Shown: piece after piece, positions 4,601 to 28,647 of the stretch
Layout: every line of letters begins with the position of its first letter
Numbering within the stretch: position 1 is the stretch's first letter
Assembly: GCA_022402465.1 (NCBI GenBank)
Contig: JAKRSH010000026.1
Coordinates: 112,741 to 176,740 of the forward strand
Direction of reading: 5' to 3'
Length of the DNA stretch: 64,000 bases
DNA from: Leptospiraceae bacterium
Lineage (GTDB): Bacteria; Spirochaetota; Leptospiria; Leptospirales; Leptospiraceae
Notes under the pieces: model-generated
What the model was told of the DNA's origin: nothing
The model's database searches: none
Seen by the model: only the letters and a program-made list of their open reading frames with translations
Translations under genes and position numbers: made by a program

Positions 4601-6000
4601 GAGGCATCGGCTATCACAGTTGGAGGAATGGTTGAACTGACACAAGTTGGAAGGGAACCATCATCAGTAAAATGAATGATGCTAGATGAAGTACTAGAGG
4701 ATGCAGAAACGATTTGAGAACTTTGTATTGCAAAAGGTGGTGCAGGGCTAAGTATCGGATTTGCAACTTCTAGAGTGTAGGTTTGTATAGGAGAAGGAGT
4801 GCTAGGCATCCAAGCAAGCAAACAACCAATGGCTTGGATTCTAGTATTTGTTGAATTCACTAATATAGGCGAAGTATAAAGTGTAGAAGAACAATTAGCT
4901 ATAGGTGCGGACCCATCCGTTGTGATTGCATATCGAATCTCAGCACCAGGTGTAACTACACTTAAGCCTATCGTTTGTTCGTTGTTATATGTTCCTCCTG
5001 CGATCGAAAAACTTGGTGTATCAACAGTTCCCGTTATGATATAAGAAAAACTCGCCAAGCTTGATGCAGTCCAATCAGGAGCACAGGCAATTGCTCGTAT
5101 TGTTGTAGAGGCAAGCATAGTCACAGGATTCGGTGTGGATGGACTCGAACATGTTGGAGTTGTGCCATCAACAGTGTAGTGTATAGTTGTCCCTGCTGGA
5201 GGAGCAGCTGGTGGACTGAGCATAGTATTCTGAGGGCTTGTCGTATAATTTGCTGAAGGCGGATTGGTTGCAAGAGTGGATGTAACCATTCCTAATTGGC
5301 CATTTGTGATTCGGTAAATCCCTGTTTGTATGCTGGATGATTTTTGTAACAAGCAAGCAATAGCTCTTAGTTCAAGGCCTGGAAGACTAGGCTGAGGAAT
5401 TGCTATGGGAGTGGTATATTCTGTTCCAACACCAGTACCATCCGGGTTACAAGCAGGATTCGAACCATTGGTTGTAAAAAAAATTTTAGCCAGAGGAACA
5501 GAAGAACTTATTATAACAGCTGTTGGGGCGGAAAATTCCCCAGGATTGGGCGAGAAATTCGGAATGGGAAGTAGGGATTCTTGGCATTGGACTAAGATAG
5601 AATTTATTGCTGTTCTTCCCATGGTTCCTTGGTTTCCTCCAATGGTGCAAGATTGATCTGGATTGGACGGTTGTTGGAGGATAGTGATGGAATACCTGGA
5701 ACTAGGACTAGGCACTAAATTAAAGCGAAAAGAACCATTAGAATTTACTTCCAAACTCTCTTTTTCTTTACTACCATTCAACTCGGATTCCAATTCAAGT
5801 GTTAGTCCCCTTCCTAGGAGTCCAGAAACTTCCCCTCCCAAAGACGGCCGGTTGAAAAGACTAAACAGGATATTAAAGGTTGCAAAATCAGAACCAAGCC
5901 TATCCAAACCAGGCATACAAGATAACCCGAAAGCAAGAATCAATGCATAGGAAAAAAAAATTATCAATTTATTCTTGAAAATGTTACAATAATTACGCAT
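1642..6000 (-). CDS. giant surface lipoprotein: ~10 chitobiase/FN3-associated-like repeats plus two C-terminal DUF1554-like domains
   Basis: 1452-aa ORF. Lipobox AFGLSC near the N-terminus. About ten ~70-85 aa modules each end in [IV]-[RK]-A-I-[AG]-C-x(4-7)-S (e.g. LRAIACLLQKSS, IRAIACAPDWTAS, IQAIGCLLAWMPS). The C-terminal ~320 aa carry two copies of the Leptospira DUF1554 pattern (AFVSDSTFDGNLGGPIGADDKCN; IWVTNNTNNGNLGGLTGADAKCN; each ending ..RLYC / RLLCVEQ). Confidence 0.8.
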   Translation of the reverse strand: MRNYCNIFKNKLIIFFSYALILAFGLSCMPGLDRLGSDFATFNILFSLFNRPSLGGEVSGLLGRGLTLELESELNGSKEKESLEVNSNGSFRFNLVPSPSSRYSITILQQPSNPDQSCTIGGNQGTMGRTAINSILVQCQESLLPIPNFSPNPGEFSAPTAVIISSSVPLAKIFFTTNGSNPACNPDGTGVGTEYTTPIAIPQPSLPGLELRAIACLLQKSSSIQTGIYRITNGQLGMVTSTLATNPPSANYTTSPQNTMLSPPAAPPAGTTIHYTVDGTTPTCSSPSTPNPVTMLASTTIRAIACAPDWTASSLASFSYIITGTVDTPSFSIAGGTYNNEQTIGLSVVTPGAEIRYAITTDGSAPIANCSSTLYTSPILVNSTNTRIQAIGCLLAWMPSTPSPIQTYTLEVANPILSPAPPFAIQSSQIVSASSSTSSSIIHFTDDGSLPTCVSSTIPPTVIADASEVAVQIRAIACRANFDPSSVSSGNYILTGTLVAPSFTPASGTFTSTQNITLNNGSGNPVGTEIRYRTDGSPATCSDTVYSSPISVPISQTITAISCRNTPLWNPSSSTSSNYTITGTLATPTFTPTTGTYNDIQSVTIASNAGSTVYYNLATGSDPPNPTCGVGSTTQPVSVVQTDTRIRAIACLAGWNDSLIGTATFTLRADTPTPNFANATIFGNSATITFASSAGASLRVVEGSFFTPPADPTCADPIINSVTIAAFPSPALRSVKAIACRAGFVTSNLFSGSYTVNGPVTSPTLSASLDPANRVTASINAPPAMQALCYRIGADPECSTTLGGVANPLGQTCASGSTVYNSGARPIISVTSDFRIRACSNNHQQSNVVLQTFNITGTVGAVSASPAPSIVNNDPTITLSSLDSTIIYYRTDGTNPDCTGVGASTYSTPFLQAPTSLGAANIKAIGCAPGKTPSAVADLNYTYQVAIPDTVSTSGTKINDELVTITSITTGSTIRYRLDSLNPADCASGSLYTLPLDLPNLAASASLGLRAIACKANYLTSTALSRDFTFETGVPIVKNHITDTIIGGDIFTPPITVRFETNTIGGRLCLDTKPHPTTVNPICSGASCGAGMTDLGLNTGTYLYSGAVGITTAVRVCKANYNPNGSLSTRTFFPLGTVYYRAFVSDSTFDGNLGGPIGADDKCNADSNRPTPGVPYLAFLGSASPQRNLGVGNPFQPLTEYRRTDNTTSIQTSDALGNPQVSLLSSWNGTLAFTWTGFDPGFSISTNNCSNWTSNSNLVNGMRGTTNSATNSWHSNSFIQCNTANRLYCLESRHRIWVTNNTNNGNLGGLTGADAKCNDLTDLNHPKSGRYKAMLLLTPNRIPGGIDWVFKPNAAYYRSDRSTLIGLTDSLGRFIKSDFTVGINTSFSTVAGNFWSGGANSNFNTSAFNCNNFTNTIGSGSFGLSDSTVLFNYVTNGSTLCSNSNRLLCVEQ

Positions 6001-6297
6001 AATTCTAAATAACTTAAAAGCTATAACAACTGAAAACTATTTTTTCTCAATTTTGAATATTTTTCAAAAAAATCCAAACCAAATTTTAATGAGAGCTTTC
6101 ATTAACATAGAATAAATTACATTACTCATTTACGGAATCATTGTTTGGTTTTGGACAAAATTTCAGAAAAAATAAGATTAGATCCAAGAATAATTTACCA
6201 GATCATCCCCAATCATGCACGGTTGTCTAAGAGTAGTTTTTCAAAAATAAGTATTTTTTTCTTTTCTCTAAGCGCTACTAAGCTGTCTATTTGGTAG

Positions 6298-7368
6298 ATG
6301 AAATTTATCCTAATTCTAATTTGCTTCAGTTTAGTTTTTCCTCTTTTTGCAGAGGAAGACCCATTTCTTGAGATGGAGGTGCAAGTATCCAATGACCTTG
6401 TATTTCGAGGTTCATCCTTTAACGGAGATTTGACGAATGATAGAAATAATCGTAAATACCAGTCTTATACTGACGCTTGGTCCATAATTCCTGATTTACG
6501 ATTTAGAACACCTTTAGAGGGTTTAAGTGTATTTTTATGGGGAAATATCAATCTCCAGCATTATGGAGATAGGGATACGGATCAGTATCTCTTTCAAAAC
6601 GGCGCGGGTCAGCCTGATAGGACCCAAGAAATTTTGAGCAATGTAGGAAGTCCAGGTTTTGGTTTCGACCCTAACCAAGTGAAGAGGTACAAAGAAAAAA
6701 ATGGAGCCCAGCGGTGGAATAGCGCCTTTATGGGTATAGATTATTCTTGGGATACCAAACTTGGTGGACTTACTTATGGAACTTGGCTTTGGTCTAGTGC
6801 TAACCCAGAGGATAAATCTATTTGGCAAGAATGGTTCTTTAGATATAGACCACCTATCTTAGATTATTTGAATCCGGAGTTTGGTTTTTTCATTAATACA
6901 TCCACTAACTCACAAACTAATTCTGCACAGCTACAAGAGAATACCACAGGTCAGAAGTATTTTTCATTTGAAATGCGGCATACCTTTTTTGATGGAGATT
7001 TCTTTCAAATTGAATGGGAAGGGCATACTGGATATTTAATGCACAATGACAATAAGAACAGATTGTCTGGGGTTTCTAATATAACCAACACCCTACGTTT
7101 TGTATTTGGTGATATCTTTTTGGGAGGTTCATGGATCTATAGACCCGAGGTTGATCTATTCGATAGATTTGATTCTAATCCTAAGGATGGAAGGATAAGT
7201 GATCCATCCAAACTTTATGGAATTGAAAATCAATTTATCCAAAATCAAATCTTATCTTTGATTGCAAATGATCCTAATTTGTCGAATCTAGTCTATGAAA
7301 GAATTACGAGTCAATCTGTTATCCGTAATTTATTCACGGTTAACTTAGGTTATAGAGTTGTATTTTAG
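6298..7368 (+). CDS. putative outer-membrane beta-barrel protein (hypothetical)
   Basis: 356-aa ORF with an ATG start, a signal peptide (..VFPLFA/EED), Gly/aromatic-rich alternating segments and a C-terminal ..NLGYRVVF ending in Phe, as is typical for OMPs. No family recognised. Confidence 0.5.
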   Translation: MKFILILICFSLVFPLFAEEDPFLEMEVQVSNDLVFRGSSFNGDLTNDRNNRKYQSYTDAWSIIPDLRFRTPLEGLSVFLWGNINLQHYGDRDTDQYLFQNGAGQPDRTQEILSNVGSPGFGFDPNQVKRYKEKNGAQRWNSAFMGIDYSWDTKLGGLTYGTWLWSSANPEDKSIWQEWFFRYRPPILDYLNPEFGFFINTSTNSQTNSAQLQENTTGQKYFSFEMRHTFFDGDFFQIEWEGHTGYLMHNDNKNRLSGVSNITNTLRFVFGDIFLGGSWIYRPEVDLFDRFDSNPKDGRISDPSKLYGIENQFIQNQILSLIANDPNLSNLVYERITSQSVIRNLFTVNLGYRVVF

Positions 7369-14892: not shown

Positions 14893-15432
14893 ATGAGAAT
14901 TAAAAATAAAATTATTCAATATTTTAGTATATTCTTACTTTCAAATTGTTCTCTACTCCATTTTACAAGAGAAGAACCACAAGCAGTTGAAAAGAAAGTA
15001 GTGATTATACAAACTCAATACCCTAAGCCTATAGTTGGGCGAGTAGAATGGATAGATTTACCTGATTTTCAGCTAAAAATTAGGTCTAGAATAGATACAG
15101 GTGCAAAGTCTTGTTCTCTTCATGCTACAAATATAGTTCCAGAAAAGGAAGGGGATGCCTTGTTCGTAAATTATGATTCAATAGGGAATGATGGAAAACC
15201 CGTTCGCTTACGATCCAAGGTTCTTTATGAATCTAAGGTAACAAGTACTAATGGAAAAACAGAATCACGTTATGTAATTCGTGCTAAAGTGAAACTTGGA
15301 AAAGTTTCAGAAATAGTTAATGTTAATCTTAATGATAGAACAAATTTAACTTATAATTTTCTGGTTGGAAGGAATTTACTGATGGGTAATTTCGTAGTTG
15401 ATGTTTCTTCTTCCCATGTCTTGGGGGATTAA
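14893..15432 (+). CDS. retropepsin-like protease of the 'ATP-dependent zinc protease' (RimB-like) family
   Basis: 179-aa ORF. Lipobox-like LLSNCS. The aspartic-protease signature D-T-G-A lies at nt 15094-15105 (RIDTGAKSCSLHA). It is the first gene of a three-gene overlapping operon. Confidence 0.65.
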   Translation: MRIKNKIIQYFSIFLLSNCSLLHFTREEPQAVEKKVVIIQTQYPKPIVGRVEWIDLPDFQLKIRSRIDTGAKSCSLHATNIVPEKEGDALFVNYDSIGNDGKPVRLRSKVLYESKVTSTNGKTESRYVIRAKVKLGKVSEIVNVNLNDRTNLTYNFLVGRNLLMGNFVVDVSSSHVLGD

Positions 15433-17054
15433 TGAGAAAAATTATTTATATTCCTGCTTCTATATTGATAGCAATTCCACTTCTAACAATTTTTTATAAA
15501 ATCTATTTTGCTGGGTTGTCATTTCTTCCTGTTAGCTTAGATTATATATGGAATATTGAAATATTAATTTCGCCTAAACAAGAATCTAAGTATATTCAAC
15601 TGAATTTTCCTATTTTAAAAAGTACAGATGATCTCGAAGTTATTCAATCTAATTTTGACAATCGTTCTTTGAATTTAGATCTTGAAAAAAAGAGCTATGG
15701 TAATCTTGCCAAATGGGAATCAGAAAATGATGAAGGTGAAACGTATGATGTTCTCCAGCAGAAACCTATTGTTTATAATGCAAAAATAAAGTTAATAAAT
15801 GTTGATTATCCAATTATTGAAAAAGATTCAAGCAGAAAATATACACCTAAAATTAATAAGTATCTCGAACTCAACCAATATTCCAAAAAAGAATTATTAG
15901 AAGCTAATAAATTGATAAAAGCACTATCTATAGAAGATAAAGATAAAACTGAAAAAGCAAAGTATATTTATTATTTCATCCATGAAGAAATTCTTAATAC
16001 TTTAAAAACTCTTTCCCTGGAAGAGTCTATGCTTTTAAGGAAAGGTTCTAGTTACAATAAATCCAAATTGTATACACTTCTATGTAGACTATCAGGCGTT
16101 CCTACTCGAACTATCATGGGCATTTATTTAGATCAGAACCAAAACAGCGAAGAAGAAGATAAATTCAAAATTCAATATTGGAATGAAGTTTATTTAAATA
16201 ATCGTTGGTTCCCCGTTCTTACTATGAATGAATATTTTGGAACAAAGCCATCACATTATGTTAGTTTGTATAGAAATGCAGATCGAATCTCATCTTCTTT
16301 CGAGGATTCTAATTCTAATTTTAACTATAGAATTTATGCAAAACAAGTCCAAGCAAATAGCTATAACCTTAAAGAGTATGCTAAGGAGGTTAAAGAGTCA
16401 GGAACTTTTATAAACCTTATATCTTTGTATGGTCTACCTATTAACCAACAAAGTTTATACAGAATGATTTTACTTCTTCCTCTTGGAGGTCTGATACTTT
16501 CCGTCTTTAGAAATATAATAGGTGTTCCAACATTTGGAATTTTTACCCCAATATTATTGACCTTATTTTTCTTTGAATCAGGTTTAGCCTTTGGATTAGT
16601 CTTTTTCACATTGATAGTTGCCTTTGGTTTCTTTGAACGGTATATACTAGATAAGCTTTATCTTCTTGCTGTTCCAAGAATGTCAATAATTTTGACTTTA
16701 ACTGTTTTTTCATTGGTTCTCTTCTCTACATTTACAAATAGCTTCCAACTTCTTTCCGGAATTGGCATTAATTTATTTCCTATTGTAATAACAACAGTCT
16801 TTATCGAAAGATTTAGTGTTATGCTCATCGAGGAAGGCAGTCTCAACACTATTATTGCAGTCTCTGGAACTTTATTTGTTTCAATAACAACGTATTTACT
16901 TTTTTTGATTCCTAATCTTTCTATAATCTTTTTTACCCACCCTGAATTACTTTTAATGATAGTAGGATTCCTACTGATTCTAGGAGATTACAAAGGTTAT
17001 CGAATTTCTGAATTAATCCGTTTTAAAGATTTGGTAAAAGTAAAGGGATTATGA
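15432..17054 (+). CDS. inactive transglutaminase-like domain fused to a 7-TM module
   Basis: 540-aa ORF whose start overlaps the previous stop by 1 nt. The periplasmic domain has a transglutaminase-core-like segment in which Ser occupies the expected catalytic Cys position (RKGSSYNKSKLYTLLCRLSGVPTRTIMG). Seven hydrophobic helices fill the C-terminal ~210 aa. Confidence 0.6.
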   Translation: MRKIIYIPASILIAIPLLTIFYKIYFAGLSFLPVSLDYIWNIEILISPKQESKYIQLNFPILKSTDDLEVIQSNFDNRSLNLDLEKKSYGNLAKWESENDEGETYDVLQQKPIVYNAKIKLINVDYPIIEKDSSRKYTPKINKYLELNQYSKKELLEANKLIKALSIEDKDKTEKAKYIYYFIHEEILNTLKTLSLEESMLLRKGSSYNKSKLYTLLCRLSGVPTRTIMGIYLDQNQNSEEEDKFKIQYWNEVYLNNRWFPVLTMNEYFGTKPSHYVSLYRNADRISSSFEDSNSNFNYRIYAKQVQANSYNLKEYAKEVKESGTFINLISLYGLPINQQSLYRMILLLPLGGLILSVFRNIIGVPTFGIFTPILLTLFFFESGLAFGLVFFTLIVAFGFFERYILDKLYLLAVPRMSIILTLTVFSLVLFSTFTNSFQLLSGIGINLFPIVITTVFIERFSVMLIEEGSLNTIIAVSGTLFVSITTYLLFLIPNLSIIFFTHPELLLMIVGFLLILGDYKGYRISELIRFKDLVKVKGL

Positions 17055-18019
17055 TTTTTCAGACATTGAAAAATTCTGGCATACTTGGAATGAACCAAAG
17101 AATTGGTGAATTTATTTTGCCCTTGAATCCTAGGCATCTTTATCCTTTAGTTGATGATAAATCTATTACTTATAATCTTTCACAACAATTCAATATTCCC
17201 ATGCCCAAGACATTTTTTGAGATTAAGGAATTTGGTGAAATCAAAGAAACCGAAAATAAATTGAAAGATATTCCGAGTTTTGTTATAAAACCTTCTAGGG
17301 GTGGTATGGGAAATGGTATCCTTGTTATAAATGATACAATTTCAAATGGTAAAGAAGTTTTTTACAAACGAGGAAGTAATGTAACAATTACGACCCAAGA
17401 ACTTCACCATCATATATCTGGGATACTTTCTGGTCTTTATTCTTTGAATGGGAATCCTGATAAAGTTATCTTTCAAGAAAAATTAAATCTGCATCCCATA
17501 TTTCATGGTTATGTAGATTCAGGCATCCCAGACCTTAGGATTATTTTATTCAAAGGAATACCCGTACTATCGATGTTACGTTTCCCAACCAAAGATTCTG
17601 GAGGTAGGGCAAACCTGCACCAAGGTGCTGTTGGAGTTGGATTGAATATGTTAAATGGAAGAGCCACTTTCTTAGTTCATAGAAATAAAATGGTAAACGA
17701 TTATATTGAATTTACTAAGGATATACAAAAATTTCAGATCCCAGATTGGCCTCAAATTTTACACCTGGCTTCAAAAACTTATGATATGGTTAATATGGGT
17801 TATTTGGGTGTGGATATTGTTTTAGATCCTGATAGAGGGCCTATTCTACTAGAATTGAATGCTAGACCAGGATTAGCGATTCAACTCGCCAATCGTATGG
17901 GGCTTGCAAAGATCTTGCAGGATATTCAATCTAGAGAACTTGAGCTTGATTCCTTTGAAAGTAGAGTCGCATTTTGTTTTGAATTTTGGAATTCGCAAAA
18001 AGCTTCACAATATATTTGA
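17051..18019 (+). CDS. RimK-related ATP-grasp ligase (alpha-L-glutamate ligase-like protein)
   Basis: 322-aa ORF overlapping the previous stop by 4 nt. ATP-grasp pattern (..FVIKPSRGGMGNGILVI.. ; ..GRANLHQGAVGVGL.. ; ..GYLGVDIVLDPDRGPILLELNARPGL..). Confidence 0.7.
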   Translation: MIFQTLKNSGILGMNQRIGEFILPLNPRHLYPLVDDKSITYNLSQQFNIPMPKTFFEIKEFGEIKETENKLKDIPSFVIKPSRGGMGNGILVINDTISNGKEVFYKRGSNVTITTQELHHHISGILSGLYSLNGNPDKVIFQEKLNLHPIFHGYVDSGIPDLRIILFKGIPVLSMLRFPTKDSGGRANLHQGAVGVGLNMLNGRATFLVHRNKMVNDYIEFTKDIQKFQIPDWPQILHLASKTYDMVNMGYLGVDIVLDPDRGPILLELNARPGLAIQLANRMGLAKILQDIQSRELELDSFESRVAFCFEFWNSQKASQYI

Positions 18020-21524: not shown

Positions 21525-22118
21525 TTATTTTGGCAAAAAATAGCCTAATATACACTCAGGATTTCGAATACAGATTTGTATGTGATTTTTTTCATGGAAG
21601 CCAGCATTGGGATAAATCTCCTTTCCTTCTCGAAAATATCCTCTAACAGAATCAAATGAGATTAATTTTTCTTGTTCTCTCATTGCATGTAGATTTTCAA
21701 TTACAGCACAATCTAAATTTCTTAATAAGATGTCATTTTCATTATCAATTGGTTTGTTAATTGGCATTGGAAATCCAGAATTTTGAATTGTTTCATGAAG
21801 CAATTTGTGACTCAATTTCAAGAATTGAATATTTTCAGAATTGAGAAGATTTAAGCAATTTCTTAAATCTATAACAGCTGCAATCACTGAAGGATTTGAA
21901 ATTTTAATTTTGCTTCTTTTGTTATTGTTTTTGAGATGTATCGCATATTCTAATGCTCTGGAGTAATTCCCTTCCCAAAAATATATTCCGTTTCCAAGCC
22001 AATCATACTTATTTTCGCTTTTCTTTAAGTTGCTCTTTCCCATTACAACATCTTCAGCAATTTTTTTGTCAGTTCCATGGAATCCAAGGACAAGACCTGG
22101 AATGTAGGAATCGATCAT
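21525..22118 (-). CDS. hypothetical protein with PARP/ADP-ribosyltransferase-like H-G-T and G-x-G-I-Y-F motifs (candidate toxin; DUF3990-like pattern)
   Basis: 197-aa ORF. GFHGT lies at H14 (nt 22077-22079). WLGNGIYFWEGNYSRALEY follows at Y46 (nt 21981-21983), 32 residues later. The spacing and wording resemble the H...Y elements of H-Y-E ADP-ribosyltransferases; candidates for the third acidic residue are AVIENL or IRNPECI. The function is inferred from motifs only. Confidence 0.4.
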   Translation of the reverse strand: MIDSYIPGLVLGFHGTDKKIAEDVVMGKSNLKKSENKYDWLGNGIYFWEGNYSRALEYAIHLKNNNKRSKIKISNPSVIAAVIDLRNCLNLLNSENIQFLKLSHKLLHETIQNSGFPMPINKPIDNENDILLRNLDCAVIENLHAMREQEKLISFDSVRGYFREGKEIYPNAGFHEKNHIQICIRNPECILGYFLPK

Positions 22119-22279
22119 TTTTTATAAATAGATTTAAGATTTCCAGAATTTGTATAGATTCCAGTTTTTTTTAAATAATTTTCGCTCGCAGATTTTGAGG
22201 AGGTAACTTTCTTAGAAAATTCCTTAAGTTTCTTGACCTCTTCTTGAATTGTTAGAATTTTTGCTTTTTTCTCTTCCAT
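22115..22279 (-). CDS. small ORF (54 aa) not in the supplied track; candidate antitoxin/partner
   Basis: Hand translation of the minus strand gives ATG at 22279-22277, then MEEKKAKILTIQEEVKKLKEFSKKVTSSKSASENYLKKTGIYTNSGNLKSIYKK, then TGA at 22117-22115. This stop overlaps the ATG (22118-22116) of the 197-aa ORF as ATGA. The ORF is below the 60-aa cut-off of the track. It is Lys/Glu-rich with a probably helical N-terminus. Confidence 0.4.
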   Translation of the reverse strand: MEEKKAKILTIQEEVKKLKEFSKKVTSSKSASENYLKKTGIYTNSGNLKSIYKK

Positions 22280-22501
22280 TTGTATATTTTAATTTATTCT
22301 TGAGATTAAATCAATAAAAATCTATATTATATATAAGTTATTAGTTAAATAAGAATATTGTCCCGCCTGGAAAAATGTCTTAATTTTGGTAAACTCGTAT
22401 TTCAAAACCATTTAACCTATCTTCGCATCCTTCTTAGAAAATACTTATTTTAAAGTAAGAATAATTTTATATTTTTAAAATGCTTGTTTGATTAAATTCT
22501 C

Positions 22502-25258
22502 TTAAACATAAGGCTCGATCCTTTTGTACCGCATCTGAAAAGCATCTTTTCCACCTTCCAAAATGGAACAGATCTCTTCTCGAATTTTTTTATCTTGCAA
22601 ACAACCCTTAGTTTCCAAATTAGTTTGACCATATTTCGATTCTAAGCAGTATACCAATTCAGAATCTCCATTTACGACTATATTAGCGTTATGTGTAACT
22701 ACTATAATTTGTCGCTTTACTTTTGATTCTTTTAATTGTTTTACTATCAATTCGTAAATTAAACGATTATCCAAATCATCTTCTGGTTGATCTAAAATGA
22801 TTGGATCACTTCCATAAGATAAAACGAATGATAATAATGCAGCCGTTTTTTGTCCAGGTGATCCTTGATCTATTGGCTGATATTGCTCTCTTGCATTTTT
22901 ATATTCTATGTTCAATGAGTCTTCAGGAAAGAATAGTTCGAGTTGGTCAATACTTTGTGAAGGAAGTTTTAATATTCGCTCTTTGAATTGCGTATACCCT
23001 CTAACACTTTGAGTAAAGTCCTGTCCAATTAATAGTCCCTTTATTCTTTTTTTTAAATCAATTATATTATCCTCACTAATTCCATTTGAATAAAGATCAT
23101 AAACTAAGCCATCGTCCGAATCAATACTTCCAATAATTTTATCAAAACCAGTTTCCGTATTTAATATTTCTCGGAGTTTAGCTTCAACCCCCTGCTTGTT
23201 TCCAAATGGAATTATTTCTATTTTAACCGATTGATTAGATTGAAACACCTTATCCAGAAACTCTTGTCTTTTTGTTGAAAGATTTTTTCTATGTTCCAAT
23301 AATTCTCTTAAGACGGTTTCAATATCTTGCTCTAATTGACTGCATTCTTTTTTAGTTGATTCTATTTTATGAATTTTTGATTCTAAATCTTGTTTAACTT
23401 GAAAGAGTTTGCCAAATTCTTCTTGTGCATTTGTGGAATTAGCAGATAAATCTTTTAAAGTCTCATCATAATTCTTAATAGAATTATTGAATCTCTGAAT
23501 CCAAATACTTTGTTTTTTATCTCTATTCCATTTCTCTAATGCAACAATCAATGACTTTGCTTGCTCTGATAAAGAGGATTTTATTCTTTCAACTTCAGCA
23601 TTTACTGTCTGAATTAGATTTTTTAAATCTTCATCGGCTTCATCACTGTCAGCAATCGATTCGTTCGGGAGATTAATTAATATTATCTCTTCAGTAATAC
23701 TTGATATCTTGTCGGGAATTTCTGCAAAATTCAATTCCCAGGAATTCAAACGACTATTTTGGTTTTGACGCTTTTGGTATTCTATTAAAATATCTTTAAA
23801 TCCCTTTTCTTCTAGAGTGATTATCTTTTTAGAAATATCTGAAAGTTCTCCTTTCCAATCTACTTCTTTATCGAGAGTTAGTTTTAATTCTCTCAATTTA
23901 TTTTTGTATGAATAAAATTTATTCTCTAGTTCTTCTTTTTTCGATTCCCAATCTCTATATCCAACTTCTTTTTGTTGGCTAATCACATCGATAAGATACT
24001 TAGGATTATCCGCAAAAGAGTAAATCTGCTTCTGACTATAAATACTAATAGGGAATCTTTCTTTTATATTTCCTTCTTCTTTGATCCATTCATTCCCGTC
24101 CCATGACTCAATAGAATTTAAACCAGAGTCTGTATATTCCCAATTGATTTTGTATTGGGTGTTGTTCTTTACATAGACTAGACTAAATTTAGAATCAGCG
24201 GTTAATAAGCCTCTCTGTGATCTATTTTCAGGAATTTCATTGTACTTAATAAATTCAGATTTCAAATTTTCAGGAATTTCATCTTCTCTTCTCATAACTA
24301 AACGAACAAACTCTACGATAGAGGATTTACCTGTTCCTCTTCCGCCAATAAAAGAATTCATCCAAGGATTTAATTTTAATTCTTGCTTTCCAATTCTGCC
24401 TATATATTTGGAATTTTCAATATTTATACTTTCAATATAGTTTAAACTATGTTCGTTAGGATTATTAGGATTTTCATCCGATCTTTTAATCGATAATACC
24501 CCGTCCATTAGAGCAAGTTTCAAACCATCCAGAGAAGGATTACCCATCTTAACCCAGGTAAAACTTTTCCCAGGATAACTCTGATTGCCTGTCCCTGTCG
24601 GATGGTGTGAATCAGAACTAAGAACAAGTGGAAGATTTCTTGTGCCTAATTTACTAAGTAATGGAGAAGTTAAATCAACCACCTCTAATGCTGTAATCGA
24701 ATTATCTAATATTTGATTTAATGAATTTCCAGAAAATTTATCCAATAAACCAGAAGCTTGGTCAATATGTGCTGGTATTGCAATTCCGCCTTTGTCATGG
24801 ATAATCTGAATTACTTCCTTTACTGATTTCGAAGTAACCGCATCACTTTTACCCTTAGTACCGTCATAGCCTGCCAAAGCTAAGACTTCGGTAATCTTAT
24901 CTTTATTCTCATTCAATTTAAAGATTGCTAAAATATGTATTCCACCATTCGCACTTATTTCAACACCAGGAAATAAATACATTTCTCTGAAATCCGCCTC
25001 TTGTTTCTCTGCATTTCTCATTTCTTCAAAGGCTGTATTCAATTGGTCAACCCATTCACCTGAATTATGATCTGTAATTGCAACACAGTCTATTTGAGCT
25101 TTCATAAAGTTCAATAGCCATTCCTTAGGAGTGATATTCATTAACTGTTGTTGATTAGAACCTTTACCATAATCATCCGATGCTGGCGTATGTGTATGAA
25201 AATCAAATTTCCACCATTTGGCTCCAATCCAATTATTAGTTGAGTCCACCCCCATCAC
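22502..25258 (-). CDS. PHP-domain phosphoesterase fused to SMC/OLD-like ABC ATPase (Ppl-like architecture)
   Basis: 918-aa ORF. The PHP motif set is DFHTHT, ITDHN, GVEIS, IPAH and SSDSHH, all within aa 1-260. Walker A GGRGTGKS is at nt 24323-24346, followed by a long Lys/Glu-rich coiled-coil-like insert. Then come the signature-like SPGQK, Walker B IILDQPEDDLD (nt 22769-22801) and VTHN. The track start is GTG at 25258; an ATG at 25255 is the next codon and an equally likely start. Confidence 0.8.
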   Translation of the reverse strand: MMGVDSTNNWIGAKWWKFDFHTHTPASDDYGKGSNQQQLMNITPKEWLLNFMKAQIDCVAITDHNSGEWVDQLNTAFEEMRNAEKQEADFREMYLFPGVEISANGGIHILAIFKLNENKDKITEVLALAGYDGTKGKSDAVTSKSVKEVIQIIHDKGGIAIPAHIDQASGLLDKFSGNSLNQILDNSITALEVVDLTSPLLSKLGTRNLPLVLSSDSHHPTGTGNQSYPGKSFTWVKMGNPSLDGLKLALMDGVLSIKRSDENPNNPNEHSLNYIESINIENSKYIGRIGKQELKLNPWMNSFIGGRGTGKSSIVEFVRLVMRREDEIPENLKSEFIKYNEIPENRSQRGLLTADSKFSLVYVKNNTQYKINWEYTDSGLNSIESWDGNEWIKEEGNIKERFPISIYSQKQIYSFADNPKYLIDVISQQKEVGYRDWESKKEELENKFYSYKNKLRELKLTLDKEVDWKGELSDISKKIITLEEKGFKDILIEYQKRQNQNSRLNSWELNFAEIPDKISSITEEIILINLPNESIADSDEADEDLKNLIQTVNAEVERIKSSLSEQAKSLIVALEKWNRDKKQSIWIQRFNNSIKNYDETLKDLSANSTNAQEEFGKLFQVKQDLESKIHKIESTKKECSQLEQDIETVLRELLEHRKNLSTKRQEFLDKVFQSNQSVKIEIIPFGNKQGVEAKLREILNTETGFDKIIGSIDSDDGLVYDLYSNGISEDNIIDLKKRIKGLLIGQDFTQSVRGYTQFKERILKLPSQSIDQLELFFPEDSLNIEYKNAREQYQPIDQGSPGQKTAALLSFVLSYGSDPIILDQPEDDLDNRLIYELIVKQLKESKVKRQIIVVTHNANIVVNGDSELVYCLESKYGQTNLETKGCLQDKKIREEICSILEGGKDAFQMRYKRIEPYV

Positions 25259-28200
25259 ACACCACCTTCAACAATTTTTATTTCGTCTGAAGAGAGTTCG
25301 TAAAGTTCATAGACTGCGAAATCAATTTTCCTATTTAAAGAATTCATCTCTCGAAGTGTTGTATTCTTAATTGACTCAACTTTTGTGTCGAAGGTTTTCT
25401 GTTTCAATTCCATCACCTTTGATACATAATTTGAAATATCGTCATGATATTTGCGATTATTAACGTTAATTATTTTTATTGGTAATGTACCAAAATATTG
25501 CTTAGTACATGTTATCCAGCCACCTCTGAAAATGTTACTGATTTTACGTAAATTCCAAAACAGTAATTTTGAATTTAAAAGACCTAAAATGTAATAAGGA
25601 GAATAATCTTTATTTTGAATAGTAATCGAAAAGCCTCCACTAGCCATTAAACAATACATTTCTTTGGATTCATCTGGGATTAATGCAAATATACCACTAT
25701 TCGCTAATAGTGGTATAACTATATCTGCTTTTGTATGTAAATTTAAACTTCTAGGAGCGCTGAAAGAATACCAACTCGAGAATTGCTTCCTTTTTTCTAA
25801 TAGTTTTTTATTTTCAAGTAAATATGAATACACATTAGGAAACTCTCTTTTTAGCTCCTTCTCTTGGATTAATTCAAAACCTTTATTATTTATTACATAC
25901 GGAAAAATAATTCTTTCATCGTTTAATGGATTAAAAGAATACCTATTAAAATCTGTAGCATATAAAGGAATCTTTAGCAAAGCAGGCTCAAGATTTATTA
26001 CTTCTCCATTTTTAGTTTCGTATTTATCTTTCGATTTTTTTACAATAAAGACACTATCATTTCCTGATGAGCTTCCTCTCGAAATTGCACAAGGTAATTC
26101 TAATAGCTTTAAAGTATTTTGTGAAAGTTTTTTTAGTATTAATTTTTCCTCAGTAGTTGAAAAAACCCAAGTATTATTTTCGAGCAATGAACTATGATCA
26201 AAAATTTGTTCATCATTTCCACTATTCTTGATTGAATTTGGAGGTGAGCAAACTCTATAAGTAAAACCCGATGTATTCATTTTTGACAAAAACAATAAGC
26301 AGGTATAAGTACTAGGTCCATCAAAAACTTGTTCATGTTTAAAATCAATTATTTGAGATAAATGACTACCTTTGATTATTAATGATCGCAGCGCCTCTCC
26401 GTAGTCCGTCGTAAAAAATTTGCTTGGTAAGATAAAACCAAATAATCCTCTATTATTGAGTAAAACTTTCAATGCTTGTTCGACAAAAAGTATATAAATA
26501 TCGTAGTTACCAATTTTACCTGTTTCATATGTACTATTGTAATAGAGAACTGTTTCAGGTGAAATTTCTTTTAAAGCTTGAATGCGAATGTAAGGAGGAT
26601 TTCCAATTATACAATCAAATCCGTTTTCTTTTTCTGATTCGTTGTTTCTTGGATTCAAAATATTAGAAAACTCATACCTCCAATCAAAGGCATTTATTTT
26701 TGATTTTTCTTTATCTGAAATACTAAATAATTTAATGTCTTCATATATATCCGTTCCCACCAAACTATTCCCACATTTAATATTCCCTTCTAATGTTGGT
26801 AATATGGTAGTATGAAACAAAGTTCTCTCATTATAGACTTCATAATGGTTGGTATTTTCCAATGCCTTGAGAGACAAGCTCATCTTAGTTACTTCGACTG
26901 CTTGTGCGTCTATATCCACGCCATAGATGCAGGACTTAAGAATATCTCTTTTTATTTTGGATGTTAGGCGGATTTGTCCATCGGAATCCATATAAACCAG
27001 TTTTCTTTCTTCTTTTGATATTCCTTTGAGTTCGGAAGACTGGGAGTCATTATCAGTATCGAATTTGATTTTTGATTCATAGTAAGATATAGTCCATTGG
27101 ATTAAATGATCGTAAGCAGTGATGAGAAAAGACCCAGATCCACAGGCTGGGTCACAGATTTTGATTTCTAAGAGGTCTTCAAGTTTCTTACACTCCTTTA
27201 ACTTTTCACCGACAGTCTTTTCAACTATATAATCAACAATATAGTCAGGTGTATAATATACTCCTCCAGCCTTTCGAATCTCGGGCTTATAATCAATGCT
27301 AGCTCTTTTGTCGGTTGTTACTACAACTTTGCCCAAGAACTGTTCATAGATAGTTCCGAGAATTTCAATAGGAATTACTTTGAAGTTGTAACGAGAATTT
27401 TCAGGAAGTAAATCCTTTAGGATTTCTAAGAGTATTTTATTGCTTACCTTGACCTCATCCAATTCCGATCGTTTGGTAAAAATGCTTCCGTTATATGTTT
27501 TGTCCAAGGAATCAAAAACATCTCTACATTCATCATAGATAATTCCTTCTTCTTTATCTTTTATAGAAGATATCTTAATGACAAGATTTTTGATGATATC
27601 TTCTTCAATGTCTCGGTCAGAGAGAACTTTTATGAAGATGAAACGATCGAGAATTAATTGTACCGCTTGAGTGATGAATTCAGCTGAAAAATCAGGTTGG
27701 TATTTTTTTATATCTTTAGCTAATTTAATCCTCCAACCGTCTTTCTCATCATCCAAATCTTTAAGGAAAGCCTTATCAGGAGGGATGCGATTCTCTTTGA
27801 TTTTCTTCTCATTGATATAGAGAGATTGTAAGCTGCCATTTCTTACATTTTCTCTTTCAAAATATTCCCAGAGCTTATCAAAATTTTGAATGTAATCTTG
27901 GAATTTCCAATCTATTACGCAATAATTATTTAGAGTTTGGTGGTTCTTAACAGGAAATGTGCAATCAAAAAATCTAAACTCCTCAAAATCTGTAAGTAGG
28001 GCAAAGTCTACTTTTTGATATTTAGCCTTACTTTGAGTGGAATAGGAATAGCTATAGGCTTGCCAAATAAAATCAGTCTTCTTTTGAAGATCATATTTTG
28101 AATGCTTAGCCTCAATATAGAATAAGGGATTTTTATCTAATTGCAGTAGATAGTCAGGTTCTTTTCCATTTTTAGCTTGGGCTTGTACGATAAATTCTCT

Positions 28201-28386
28201 TTCCGCAGGATTTTTTATTCCTTCATTGGATATATTCCAGTTTAGATAGCGAAATAAAGGTTTAATAAATTCATCTTCTATCTGGGCTTCTTTGTATTGC
28301 CCTGATGTTTTGATAAAATCCAATTTGTCTGCAAAATTCTCTGTTAATTCTTGAATCTTTGATTTTGATTCTTCTTTGGTGAACAT
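25255..28386 (-). CDS. type IIG restriction-modification enzyme (fused PD-(D/E)xK-like nuclease, gamma-class N6-adenine DNA methyltransferase and target-recognition region; Eco57I/MmeI-like)
   Basis: 1043-aa ORF. The N-terminal motif is EPDYLL..(x)..FYIEAKH (D78, E92, K94; nt 28105-28155). SAM-binding motif I DPACGSGSF is at nt 27130-27153. Catalytic motif IV GNPPY is at nt 26590-26604. About 440 aa follow motif IV, where related enzymes place the specificity domain. Confidence 0.85.
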   Translation of the reverse strand: MFTKEESKSKIQELTENFADKLDFIKTSGQYKEAQIEDEFIKPLFRYLNWNISNEGIKNPAEREFIVQAQAKNGKEPDYLLQLDKNPLFYIEAKHSKYDLQKKTDFIWQAYSYSYSTQSKAKYQKVDFALLTDFEEFRFFDCTFPVKNHQTLNNYCVIDWKFQDYIQNFDKLWEYFERENVRNGSLQSLYINEKKIKENRIPPDKAFLKDLDDEKDGWRIKLAKDIKKYQPDFSAEFITQAVQLILDRFIFIKVLSDRDIEEDIIKNLVIKISSIKDKEEGIIYDECRDVFDSLDKTYNGSIFTKRSELDEVKVSNKILLEILKDLLPENSRYNFKVIPIEILGTIYEQFLGKVVVTTDKRASIDYKPEIRKAGGVYYTPDYIVDYIVEKTVGEKLKECKKLEDLLEIKICDPACGSGSFLITAYDHLIQWTISYYESKIKFDTDNDSQSSELKGISKEERKLVYMDSDGQIRLTSKIKRDILKSCIYGVDIDAQAVEVTKMSLSLKALENTNHYEVYNERTLFHTTILPTLEGNIKCGNSLVGTDIYEDIKLFSISDKEKSKINAFDWRYEFSNILNPRNNESEKENGFDCIIGNPPYIRIQALKEISPETVLYYNSTYETGKIGNYDIYILFVEQALKVLLNNRGLFGFILPSKFFTTDYGEALRSLIIKGSHLSQIIDFKHEQVFDGPSTYTCLLFLSKMNTSGFTYRVCSPPNSIKNSGNDEQIFDHSSLLENNTWVFSTTEEKLILKKLSQNTLKLLELPCAISRGSSSGNDSVFIVKKSKDKYETKNGEVINLEPALLKIPLYATDFNRYSFNPLNDERIIFPYVINNKGFELIQEKELKREFPNVYSYLLENKKLLEKRKQFSSWYSFSAPRSLNLHTKADIVIPLLANSGIFALIPDESKEMYCLMASGGFSITIQNKDYSPYYILGLLNSKLLFWNLRKISNIFRGGWITCTKQYFGTLPIKIINVNNRKYHDDISNYVSKVMELKQKTFDTKVESIKNTTLREMNSLNRKIDFAVYELYELSSDEIKIVEGGV

Positions 28387-28609
28387 AGTGAGAGTTTTAC
28401 TCTTGTGATTCTATATGTCAAAGGAATTTTTCTTGTAAGGTGTTAAATAAAAGAAAAATTAAAATCTTAATCGAGAGATTGTTAAAATAAATCAAAATAG
28501 ATGGCCAATTTATGTATATAAGTGTTTGTATGGAGGGATTTAAAGTTAAAAATAAGATATTTAAATGTTGAAGATTTCTTAAAGAATTAGAAAAATAACT
28601 TCCTTCTTG

Positions 28610-28636
28610 CGCCTACCACCAATCAGGCAATAGGCG
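28610..28636 (-). terminator. weak candidate hairpin downstream of the DUF6580-like gene
   Basis: CGCCTA (28610-28615) and TAGGCG (28631-28636) form a 6-bp GC-rich stem with a 15-nt loop, 12 nt past the stop of the 28648-29163 ORF. No clear U-tract follows on the minus strand. Confidence 0.2.
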
Positions 28637-28647
28637 ACGATTAGGAT

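Follow-up and report, generated by a model that had tools for sequence, protein, structure and literature searches.

A conserved, mobile gene pair encoding a putative CmdT-like ADP-ribosyltransferase and a 54-residue partner: a candidate chaperone-independent toxin–antitoxin module

On the minus strand of a 64-kb stretch of DNA from a Leptospiraceae bacterium (the whole of which is referred to here as the window), an open reading frame (ORF) of 54 codons runs directly into one encoding 197 amino acids. The arrangement raises two questions: are both genuine genes, and, if so, do they operate together as an ADP-ribosyltransferase (ART) toxin and its antitoxin, as an earlier note on this DNA had proposed? 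The layout is as described there: the minus-strand ORF at 22279-22115 is present in both the sequence and the ORF list, and shares an ATGA with the larger ORF. The features of the locus are:

22115..22279, minus strand: small partner gene, 54 aa, putative antitoxin/immunity protein (ORF list; ATG at 22279-22277, TGA at 22117-22115)
21525..22118, minus strand: CmdT-like ADP-ribosyltransferase gene, 197 aa, putative toxin/effector (ORF list; ATG at 22118-22116)
22115..22118, minus strand: ATGA stop/start overlap of the 54-aa and 197-aa ORFs (sequence; consistent with translational coupling)
22280..22501, minus strand: AT-rich spacer, 222 nt, from the Ppl stop to the small ORF; presumably the pair's promoter region
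22502..25258, same strand as the pair: Ppl/TrlF-family PHP-ATPase, 918 aa
25255..28386, same strand as the pair: type IIG restriction-modification (R-M) enzyme, 1043 aa

At ~30% GC a random open frame of 54 codons has a probability of roughly 1% (our own arithmetic). More decisively, when 81 loci from many phyla were scanned with a profile hidden Markov model (HMM) of the small protein, 79 had a same-strand match directly upstream of the enzyme gene, compared to 0/81, 1/76 and 0/76 in control regions. Both ORFs are therefore real genes, beyond chance. The spacer contains one weak sigma-70-like site (22314-22286, minus strand), such matches being fewer than in shuffled sequence. A scan of the spacer upstream of the small ORF found no terminator; neither a clear operator-like inverted repeat nor a clear promoter was found upstream of the pair, inverted repeats there being unremarkable. 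There is no tRNA within the 64-kb window, and the ORF list shows no genes downstream of the ART within it.

The 197-aa protein gave an AlphaFold2 (AF2) model with a pLDDT of 87.1 and a pTM of 0.84, and Foldseek matches for this model in the PDB are nearly all ART catalytic domains. They include exotoxin A (E 4e-4, probability 1.0), PARP1/10/14/15, the NatR toxin (8qnl_C), the anti-CRISPR entry 6kyf and, among the weaker matches, Tpt1 structures (E about 0.1); the top PDB match is described as a cyanophage pre-ejectosome protein. Against BFVD the matches are phage ART-PolyVal domains, with E-values down to 5e-6. The fold is thus common to the protein, the ART-PolyVal domains and the exotoxin A/PARP group (Foldseek probability up to 1.0, E 5e-6 to 1e-3), but identity is 11-20%, TM-scores for the PDB and BFVD matches are a modest 0.35-0.47, and the ART-PolyVal and exotoxin A/PARP domains sit in large multidomain proteins, target proteins and have no small partner. 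Searches of Pfam, NCBIfam and PDB sequences returned nothing significant for either the 54-aa or the 197-aa protein. The Pfam PARP model (PF00644) gives sub-threshold matches in 6 of 23 tested family members (best E 1.9e-4), none reaching the gathering score, and no match for the window protein.

The earlier note had suggested a resemblance to the DUF3990 family, a member of the ART clan that serves as the toxin domain at the C-terminus of Rhs5, a T6SS effector of Serratia (PMC4524185, PMC7955679). The current Pfam model (PF13151) does not support membership: neither the window protein nor any of the 23 members matches it at E<=1. The two families belong to the same ART superfamily, and the only pointer to DUF3990 is one family member (UniProt A0A5D3WIR0) that is auto-named 'DUF3990 domain-containing protein' and is itself without a match to the current HMM.

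The motifs from which an ART had been predicted are where they were said to be. The peptide LVLGFHGTDKKI carries H14 and WLGNGIYFWEGNYSRALEY carries Y46, with a His-Tyr spacing of 32 residues; the QICI strand lies at residues 181-184. Both H14 and Y46, the predicted His and Tyr, are invariant in 23/23 members, and in the AF2 model they fall on predicted strands (9-17 and 45-49, respectively). The codons concerned, together with that of a candidate third catalytic residue, are:

22077..22079, minus strand: H14 codon, strand beta-1, motif F-H-G-[CT]-D; this His is predicted to bind NAD (invariant, 23/23)
21981..21983, minus strand: Y46 codon, Tyr of the W-L-G-x-G-x-Y-F-W motif (invariant; aligns with the CmdT catalytic Tyr)
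21627..21629, minus strand: E164 codon, Glu of the R-G-x-F-x-E-G strand, candidate third catalytic residue (invariant)

In the H-Y-E clade the third catalytic residue is a Glu (or Asp/Gln) on strand 5. E164, within predicted strand 157-167, appears to be the best candidate for it on the strength of its conservation and its place in that predicted strand, the alignment to CmdT being of low confidence in this region; D156 and Q181 are other conserved residues and offer alternatives. From fold and motifs, the protein is probably an NAD-using ART of the H-Y-E (diphtheria toxin/PARP) clade.

Which ART is it closest to? CmdT is the toxin of CmdTAC, a toxin–antitoxin–chaperone anti-phage system (PD-T4-9) from E. 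coli ECOR22 (PMC9519451, PMC11618068); it blocks translation by ADP-ribosylating single-stranded mRNA at the N6 of adenine within GA dinucleotides. Both PADLOC profiles for CmdT (PD-T4-9_A) are matched by 23/23 members (best E 6.5e-7; E 2e-3 for the window protein), and hhalign of the enzyme family against a 34-sequence CmdT alignment gives a probability of 95.1% (E 3.2e-8). The confident part of that alignment is the N-terminal 51 columns only; when extended, it stays collinear across 172 of some 200 columns, and CmdT aligns over its full length with one family member at 23% identity (193 columns, E 2e-4). H14 aligns with the invariant His of CmdT, and the invariant Y46 with a CmdT tyrosine numbered Y43 by PGAP and Y41 in PMC11618068, where Y41A is reported to abolish both defence and toxicity. 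As judged by these comparisons, CmdT is the nearest characterised relative and the window protein a distant homologue of it. Orthology was rejected, identity being about 20-25%. The earlier note did not name CmdT; the enzyme is accordingly not an entirely new ART but a remote offshoot of a toxin lineage already known.

The likeness to CmdT extends to overall form: each is a free-standing ART of about 190-200 aa, the order of motifs is the same (GFHxC; WL..G.YFW; ..LDL..; F...[IV][KR]; ..Q[QI].C[VI]), and both resemble the exotoxin A catalytic domain according to Foldseek (for CmdT, PMC11618068). Each system also includes a small gene for a partner, of 54 aa in the present pair and 77 aa in the case of CmdA, and each occurs on mobile elements. 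However, the order is reversed: the partner lies upstream of the enzyme here, whereas CmdA lies downstream of CmdT (T-A-C). Moreover, the partner is unrelated to CmdA and lacks the long, disordered chaperone-addiction (ChAD) tail that CmdA has at its C-terminus, its model predicting a folded protein throughout; a tblastn search for CmdA-like sequence at the loci found none (best E 1.8). The rule for calling CmdTAC places the SecB-like CmdC within two genes of the toxin (PMC11618068), but there is no such chaperone here: in 83 loci tblastn did not find CmdC (best E 0.9), and SecB is not among the recurrent neighbour families. Finally, the present family is centred on Bacteroidota, while CmdT is centred on Gammaproteobacteria.

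Other ART-based systems offer a looser parallel. DarTG, ParST and NatRT each pair an ART-fold toxin with an adjacent cognate neutraliser, are mobile, and have defence or addiction roles, which for the present pair are putative. Their neutralisers are of another kind: DarG, a macrodomain or NADAR hydrolase, takes the modification off again, and partners of the ParS and NatT type are folded domains of greater size, whereas the partner here is a helical micro-protein of 50-60 aa with no enzymatic domain. At the level of sequence, Pfam, NCBIfam and PADLOC profiles revealed no relation of the enzyme to DarT or ParT. Literature searches on DUF3990, PD-T4-9, CmdT and RNA ADP-ribosylation turned up no account of such a two-gene family.

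The two genes have been conserved, and passed on, together. In addition to the upstream position of the small gene, the tight junction is kept: the two ORFs overlap by 25 nt in 29 loci, by 1 nt in 9 and by 4 nt in 2, the rest being mostly gaps of 1-13 nt, so that most junctions are overlaps or gaps of <=13 nt. The enzyme and its partner have diverged in a correlated way (Mantel r 0.47, 0/2000 permutations), the small protein evolving faster (mean identity 33.5% vs 54% for the enzyme), and in one locus (L078) the whole pair has been tandemly duplicated as a unit. Apparent exceptions to pairing (L055, L079, L043 and L040) were explained as ORF-choice artefacts or tandem duplications. Where the pair decays, the pattern is toxin-first: in L018 the ART is truncated and the small gene intact; in L040 the ART start codon is lost and two copies of the small gene are kept. 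Against a neutralising partner, L077 retains an intact ART beside a small protein with a diverged C-terminal motif. The earlier note had staked its proposal on an ART fold for the larger protein and on retention of the small ORF in orthologous loci: both were found.

The small protein ranges from 48 to 70 aa across loci. The 54-aa version is modelled confidently (AF2 pLDDT 89): a long helix spanning residues 2-26 is followed by another at 29-39 and then by a short hairpin. The family carries a conserved C-terminal motif, S-S-K..A..[FY]L...G-I.T..G.L...Y. Searches for relatives gave little: Pfam on 41 members returned noise and no family, and Foldseek with the confident model found no fold match in the PDB (best E 3.3). 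No HTH, RHH or other DNA-binding domain was detected by Pfam or fold search, nor was similarity found to a known antitoxin family or fold, or to CmdA. The idea of a uniformly basic, nucleic-acid binding protein was dropped: members differ greatly in charge, with a pI anywhere from 4.6 to 11.6, and those of Rhizobium are acidic. This range therefore suggests no single mode of inhibition, such as nucleic-acid mimicry.

Not confined to the Leptospira-like genomes of which the earlier note spoke, the enzyme family comprises 3,344 representatives at 50% identity from at least 585 species, all annotated "hypothetical". It is mostly found in Bacteroidota but is spread patchily over Planctomycetota, Bacillota, plasmids of Pseudomonadota and other groups, and identity between the Leptospira and Bacteroidota enzymes is about 57%, which implies horizontal transfer. 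Most copies are chromosomal, many among housekeeping genes, and members occur on 70 plasmids, 35 of them conjugative. On pPSR1 the pair adjoins an integrase, IS elements and a Phd/RelE module; on pRL8 it abuts the traA-F-B-H relaxase operon. The enzyme matches a PHROG family (E 2.5e-23), and only 1 of 50,697 phage records contains a match, which is partial.

No third gene recurs beside the pair, as shown by blastp clustering of 396 flanking proteins and by Pfam and PADLOC counts on the 145 nearest neighbours. Among 80 other loci, two other Leptospira species being represented, no neighbour family is present in more than four, and the immediate neighbours are mostly housekeeping, not defence, genes. 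That the pair sits beside R-M and ATPase genes, as the earlier note stressed, is correct for the window, but the linkage is local to the species: it was found only in the window and 7 near-identical contigs and is absent from the 80 other loci. The pair is thus a mobile two-gene cassette without a chaperone or third gene.

We favour, with moderate confidence, the view that this cassette is a self-contained type II-like toxin–antitoxin (TA) or abortive-infection/addiction module, in which a chaperone-less CmdT-like ART is matched with a neutralising partner. Features of type II-like TA systems are present: small, co-directional genes that overlap or abut, a conserved pairing, a variable genomic context, occurrence on plasmids and, in the window, a place in an islet richer in AT that also contains the Ppl and type IIG R-M genes. 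The enzymatic activity, toxicity, neutralisation by the small protein, RNA target and trigger that we infer would fit together as follows. The 197-aa gene would encode an NAD+-dependent ART of the H-Y-E clade, a distant full-length homologue of CmdT, to which the 54-aa gene would be translationally coupled via the ATGA overlap; its product would most likely bind and neutralise the enzyme and may also aid its folding. Loss or displacement of the partner, through faster turnover, phage infection or plasmid loss, would free the enzyme to ADP-ribosylate a nucleic-acid target, most likely RNA, and so arrest growth.

Several observations count against this reading: the low TM-scores, the short confident stretch of the CmdT alignment, the mostly housekeeping neighbours elsewhere, the small protein's lack of likeness to CmdA or any known antitoxin, its variable charge and the state of L077. 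A further point comes from CmdTAC itself. CmdT alone is non-toxic, because it needs CmdA to fold (PMC11618068); the small partner could therefore be an activator as well as an inhibitor. Taken further, the pair would be an obligate two-subunit enzyme: the small protein would serve folding, stability or specificity, much as the chaperone-like side of CmdA does, and restraint would come from expression level, substrate availability or a host factor. CmdT is insoluble in the absence of CmdA, and CmdT plus CmdA is reported to be the toxic combination, kept in check only by the chaperone CmdC (PMC11445053). A small gene that comes first and is translationally coupled would likewise suit co-translational assembly, and the near-universal co-occurrence and co-divergence of the two proteins would be expected of subunits. 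However, no restraining third component is conserved, without which a toxic ART that was always active would be difficult to retain. The loss of the ART from L018 and L040, with the small gene kept or duplicated, is also better accommodated by a protective small gene. We regard a two-subunit enzyme as unlikely.

Rather less probable is a counter-defence or host-manipulating ART carried by mobile elements, after the manner of AcrIF11, T4 Alt/Mod or ART-PolyVal, which would act on a defence or regulatory protein of the host, with the small protein as regulator or adaptor. The structural comparisons lend this some weight: the best viral matches are ART-PolyVal domains, the top PDB match is the cyanophage protein, and the anti-CRISPR entry among the PDB matches, 6kyf, is one that we take to be AcrIF11. 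AcrIF11 has been described as an ART (PMC12421852). The conjugative half of the plasmids, the tra context in pRL8 and the PHROG match point the same way. Yet by sequence no anti-defence ART comes as near to the family as CmdT, a defence toxin, most copies are chromosomal among ordinary genes, phage genomes are almost devoid of the family, and a tightly overlapping, conserved micro-gene upstream is not typical of anti-defence genes.

A non-toxic metabolic or resistance enzyme – an Arr-like small-molecule ART or a Tpt1-like RNA 2'-phosphotransferase, preceded by an unrelated conserved leader peptide – would account for the many loci amid housekeeping genes and for the weaker Foldseek matches to Tpt1. 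We consider it very improbable: the enzyme has no Pfam or NCBIfam match to the Arr or Tpt1 families, its distribution is patchy, horizontally transferred and plasmid-rich, and a leader peptide is at odds with a small protein that is conserved and has a confidently folded predicted structure. Hardly credible, finally, is a four-gene defence operon of the pair, the Ppl ATPase and the type IIG enzyme: all four genes are co-directional and closely spaced, the block recurs in the 7 near-identical contigs and it forms an islet AT-richer than its flanks, but the lack of conserved linkage in the other loci largely refutes it. The 222-nt spacer intervenes between Ppl and the small ORF, and Ppl and type IIG enzymes each count as systems in their own right in the PADLOC and NCBIfam models.

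Returning to the preferred reading of a two-gene TA or abortive-infection module, its interest lies in scale. ADP-ribosylation of mRNA as a bacterial defence was shown with CmdT in 2024. CmdT proper forms a small family, with 121 clusters at 90% identity, and is bound up with a SecB-like chaperone; the present family is more than 40-fold larger (>5,000 clusters at the same identity) and simpler in architecture. If it is indeed such a module, nucleic-acid ADP-ribosylation would be a much commoner conflict strategy than is currently documented, and defence and TA annotation pipelines would gain a missing entry, along with a new antitoxin fold. More tentatively, the pair may represent a very widespread and unrecognised class of chaperone-independent ART TA or abortive-infection systems, in which a helix-helix-hairpin protein of roughly 55 aa would be a new type of ART inhibitor, perhaps blocking the NAD+ or substrate cleft with its conserved G-x-L-x-x-x-Y hairpin, and might also sense infection, while the enzyme would modify RNA or another nucleic acid with a specificity unlike that of CmdT. 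Were this true, ADP-ribosylation of mRNA or other nucleic acids would reach beyond one small system of Gammaproteobacteria into thousands of lineages, among them gut Bacteroidota, Leptospira and plant-pathogen plasmids.

The micro-protein partner of this family is often missed by gene callers. The small gene is annotated in 7/7 of the near-identical contigs and also in RefSeq plasmid annotations.

The 54-codon ORF that the earlier note described as ATGA-coupled to the ORF for a 197-aa protein is present in both the sequence and the ORF list, as are the peptides it quoted from the larger product (H14 in LVLGFHGTDKKI, Y46 in WLGNGIYFWEGNYSRALEY). The restriction-modification (R-M) and ATPase genes said to lie beside the pair were identified upstream, on the same strand.

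22279-22115, minus strand: 54-codon ORF; its TGA is shared with the next ATG in ATGA
22118-21525, minus strand: 197-codon ORF; its ATG lies inside the ATGA overlap with the 54-codon ORF
Upstream of the pair, minus strand: Ppl/TrlF-family PHP-ATPase, 918 aa (NCBIfam TrlF, 618 bits; PADLOC Ppl, 482 bits)
Upstream of the pair, minus strand: type IIG restriction-modification enzyme, 1043 aa

Read from the sequence, the ATGA overlap is consistent with translational coupling of the two genes; regulatory signals for the pair did not rise above chance level.

The 197-aa protein has no significant match in Pfam, NCBIfam or a PDB sequence search. It is matched by a PHROG of unknown function (E 2.5e-23). 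Its homologs fill >5,000 clusters at 90% identity; those that score best are ~205 aa long and 55-60% identical to the window protein, and they come from phyla that include Bacteroidota, Desulfuromonadota and Verrucomicrobiota. All homologs are called "hypothetical protein" except for a single UniProt entry auto-named "DUF3990 domain-containing". When 1.84 billion representatives were searched exhaustively with a profile, 3,344 matched at E≤1e-3 and, of these, 2,179 reached E≤1e-10; almost all are stand-alone proteins of ~200 aa. Alignment of 23 family members shows 43 invariant columns, including F13-H14-G15-x-D17, Y38-D-W-L-G-x-G-x-Y46-(F)-W48, R54, R133..D136-C-A-V, R159-G-x-F-x-E164-G, A172-G-F and Q181.

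The AlphaFold2 model of the protein is confident (pLDDT 87.1, pTM 0.84), and its Foldseek matches in the PDB are almost exclusively ADP-ribosyltransferase (ART) domains: a cyanophage pre-ejectosome protein, exotoxin A (E 4e-4, probability 1.0), PARP1, PARP10/14/15, Tpt1, the NatR toxin and the anti-CRISPR entry 6kyf, with modest TM-scores of about 0.37-0.41. Matches among viral models are ART-PolyVal domains (E down to 5e-6), and 6/23 family members have weak Pfam PARP matches. Together the fold matches, the invariant H/Y/E residues and the weak PARP matches therefore support the ART fold with an H-Y-E-type constellation that had been proposed from the PARP-like motifs. The suggested resemblance to DUF3990 fared less well, membership being unsupported with the current Pfam model (0/23 members). 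Pfam does place DUF3990 in its ART clan (PMC7955679), and a Serratia Rhs effector carries it as a toxic C-terminal domain (PMC4524185).

The only named family matched by all ART members is PADLOC PD-T4-9_A (23/23, best E 6.5e-7; window protein, E 2e-3). PD-T4-9 is CmdTAC (PMC9519451). The ART that serves as its toxin, CmdT, has an H-Y-[E/D/Q] triad, is similar to exotoxin A and loses activity on Y41A mutation; it blocks translation by attaching ADP-ribose to N6 of adenine in GA dinucleotides of single-stranded RNA (PMC11618068). A cmdTAC copy, found through 45 nt of native sequence in a published primer, sits in a P2-like prophage (CmdT 192 aa, CmdA 77 aa, CmdC 129 aa). When the ART family was compared with an alignment of 34 CmdT sequences by hhalign, the N-terminal 51 columns matched at 95.1% probability (E 3.2e-8); at a greedier or global setting the two families are collinear over ~172 columns, with motifs in order.

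Motif pairs in the extended hhalign alignment (CmdT; ART family)
GFHxC; GFHGC
WLtQGyYFW; WLGnGiYFW
LLDLVG; CLDLLD
FPYxAIKAQD; FDSVRGvFxEG
RQQMCVF; HIQICIR

Pairwise alignment of one ART family member to CmdT spans 193 columns. Because the published primer begins GTG-CAG-GTA-GTT-CAT-ATA, PGAP numbering of CmdT equals that of the paper +2, and the catalytic Y41 therefore aligns with window Y46; the invariant His of CmdT aligns with H14. By the profile, motif and pairwise alignments, the window protein is thus a distant, full-length CmdT homolog. Its family, a sister to that of CmdT, is far larger and covers a wider taxonomic range, against just 121 clusters for CmdT; the published count of CmdTAC was limited to systems with CmdT and CmdC ≤2 genes apart (PMC11618068). 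The pair differs from CmdTAC in that its small protein is not related to CmdA and both CmdT partners are missing beside it: no SecB/CmdC-like or CmdA-like sequence was found in 83 loci.

Conservation of the small ORF and of its tight junction, a point raised in the earlier note, was confirmed at homologous loci. From one-genome-per-species contigs (at least 585 hits confirmed), 80 loci were examined, and nearly all carry a same-strand ORF of 48-100 codons ending at or overlapping the ART start: the overlap is 25 nt in 29 loci, 1 nt in 9 and 4 nt in 2, and most of the remainder have 1-13 nt between the two ORFs. These upstream ORFs are homologous – the window 54-aa sequence alone matches ~60 of them (phmmer) – and share the core ..S-[SK]-K..A..FL...G-I.T..G.L...Y. 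An HMM of the small protein finds a same-strand match ahead of the ART in 79/81 loci, compared with 0/81, 1/76 and 0/76 control regions, and still matches 7/9 loci excluded from training plus both plasmid loci; the 54-aa gene is called in all 7 contigs near-identical to the window. In pairwise comparison the small protein and the ART diverge in a correlated way (Mantel r 0.47, 0/2000 permutations), with faster evolution in the small protein (mean identity 33.5% vs 54%). Its charge is variable (pI 4.6-11.6, median 9.7; Rhizobium versions are acidic). The family lacks a Pfam domain and a name in any source. Its model is confident (pLDDT 89; helix 2-26, helix 29-39, short hairpin) and has no PDB fold match.

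A few loci depart from the simple arrangement. The ART is truncated beside an intact small gene in L018, and in L077 an intact ART accompanies a small protein with a diverged C-terminus. Two Pedobacter sp. loci carry tandem copies of the small gene: in L040 (about 5600-6000) the ART start codon is lost (MYST -> TYTT), and in L043 (about 5690-6020) the ART is intact, the ART-proximal copy has an internal deletion and the upstream copy is intact. Two complete pairs stand in tandem, ~3.7 kb apart, in L078 (Segatella copri, gut Prevotellaceae; about 1950-2700 and 5643-6408), and L051 (1432-1785) holds a partial second ART copy (residues 41-156).

Among 396 flanking proteins there is no third recurrent gene; nearest neighbors are heterogeneous (a few defence-type ATPases, two integrases, many housekeeping genes). 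The ART family occurs on 70 plasmids, 35 of them conjugative. On Pseudomonas syringae pPSR1 the pair lies beside an integrase, IS elements and a Phd/RelE module, and on conjugative pRL8 of Rhizobium johnstonii (L081, 3825-4618) it adjoins the traH-traB-traF-traA relaxase operon; RefSeq lists both genes as hypothetical proteins on both plasmids. (traM and a traR-like gene are also near the pair on pRL8.) The small gene and the ART are a real, co-inherited, mobile and widespread two-gene cassette, whose larger product combines an ART fold with invariant H/Y/E residues and can be recognized as a homolog of CmdT, the toxin that modifies mRNA.

The pair would belong with the ART toxin modules, CmdTAC being the closest; no description of it was found in the literature searched, and its novelty lies in the partner family and the large unannotated distribution. 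We think it somewhat more probable than otherwise that the cassette is a chaperone-less type II-like toxin-antitoxin/abortive-infection or addiction module: the enzyme would be toxic, probably via nucleic-acid (RNA) ADP-ribosylation, and the small protein would be its neutralizing partner. The main rival reading makes the small protein an obligatory subunit, for folding or specificity, in place of an inhibitor. The dual role of CmdA lends it plausibility: CmdA aids CmdT folding and also neutralizes CmdT, and SecB-like CmdC keeps CmdA stable until displaced by phage capsid protein (PMC11618068). This reading is distinctly less probable. An anti-defence role like that of AcrIF11 or ART-PolyVal is possible at lower probability still: ART-PolyVal domains among the fold matches speak for it, and against it only one phage genome has an ART match, a partial one. 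A non-toxic enzyme is quite unlikely.

The phage match is a Synechococcus phage S-B28 protein (MK016662.1 24512-24667), 52% identical solely to ART residues 8-59, the segment with the His and Tyr motifs. A 117-aa, DUF6321-containing S-B28 protein among the BFVD fold matches is probably the same protein; a truncated ART and a decoy are both possible readings of it. Structurally, the top matches of all lie in phage proteins >1,000 aa, as ART-like domains of PDB 9k3a_B (cyanophage A4 pre-ejectosome component) and BFVD A0A6J5PCY7 (annotated ParB/Sulfiredoxin), which suggests that injected phage proteins carry related ART modules.

An AT-richer islet of ~6.9 kb (GC about 0.28-0.33 vs about 0.35-0.39 in the flanks) holds the pair, Ppl and the R-M gene in the window. 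The genes flanking it are ordinary chromosomal ones: Sulf_transp/DUF6691 to one side, DUF6580 to the other and, ~2.6 kb farther out, a DUF1554 gene. In other Leptospira species the surroundings of the pair differ, which makes its linkage to Ppl and the R-M enzyme a local one; that all four genes form one system is very improbable.

The R-M and Ppl genes (22502-28386, minus strand) share 4 nt (25255-25258), and so look like one operon. Among near-identical contigs (L084-L087) the R-M product is 961, 1004 or 1043 aa and Ppl is constant at 917 aa; these length differences suggest a variable or frameshifted part in the R-M gene. Some closely related strains have three to five additional small genes between DUF6580 and the R-M gene (L084 840-1767; L085 723-1650; L087 540-2009), encoding 160, 51 and 97 aa and, in L087, also 82 and 73 aa. 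They are missing in L086 and in the window (gap 28387-28647), and make up another variable mini-cassette, possibly a further toxin-antitoxin-like module. Finally, a 7TM-transglutaminase (540 aa), an ATP-grasp protein (322 aa) and a RimB-like protein, encoded at 15432-18019 and further upstream (cf. L084 12105-15231), adjoin a 7TMR-DISM-SpoIIE phosphatase; the group has the look of a conserved cluster for peptide modification or signalling, with no relation to the pair.
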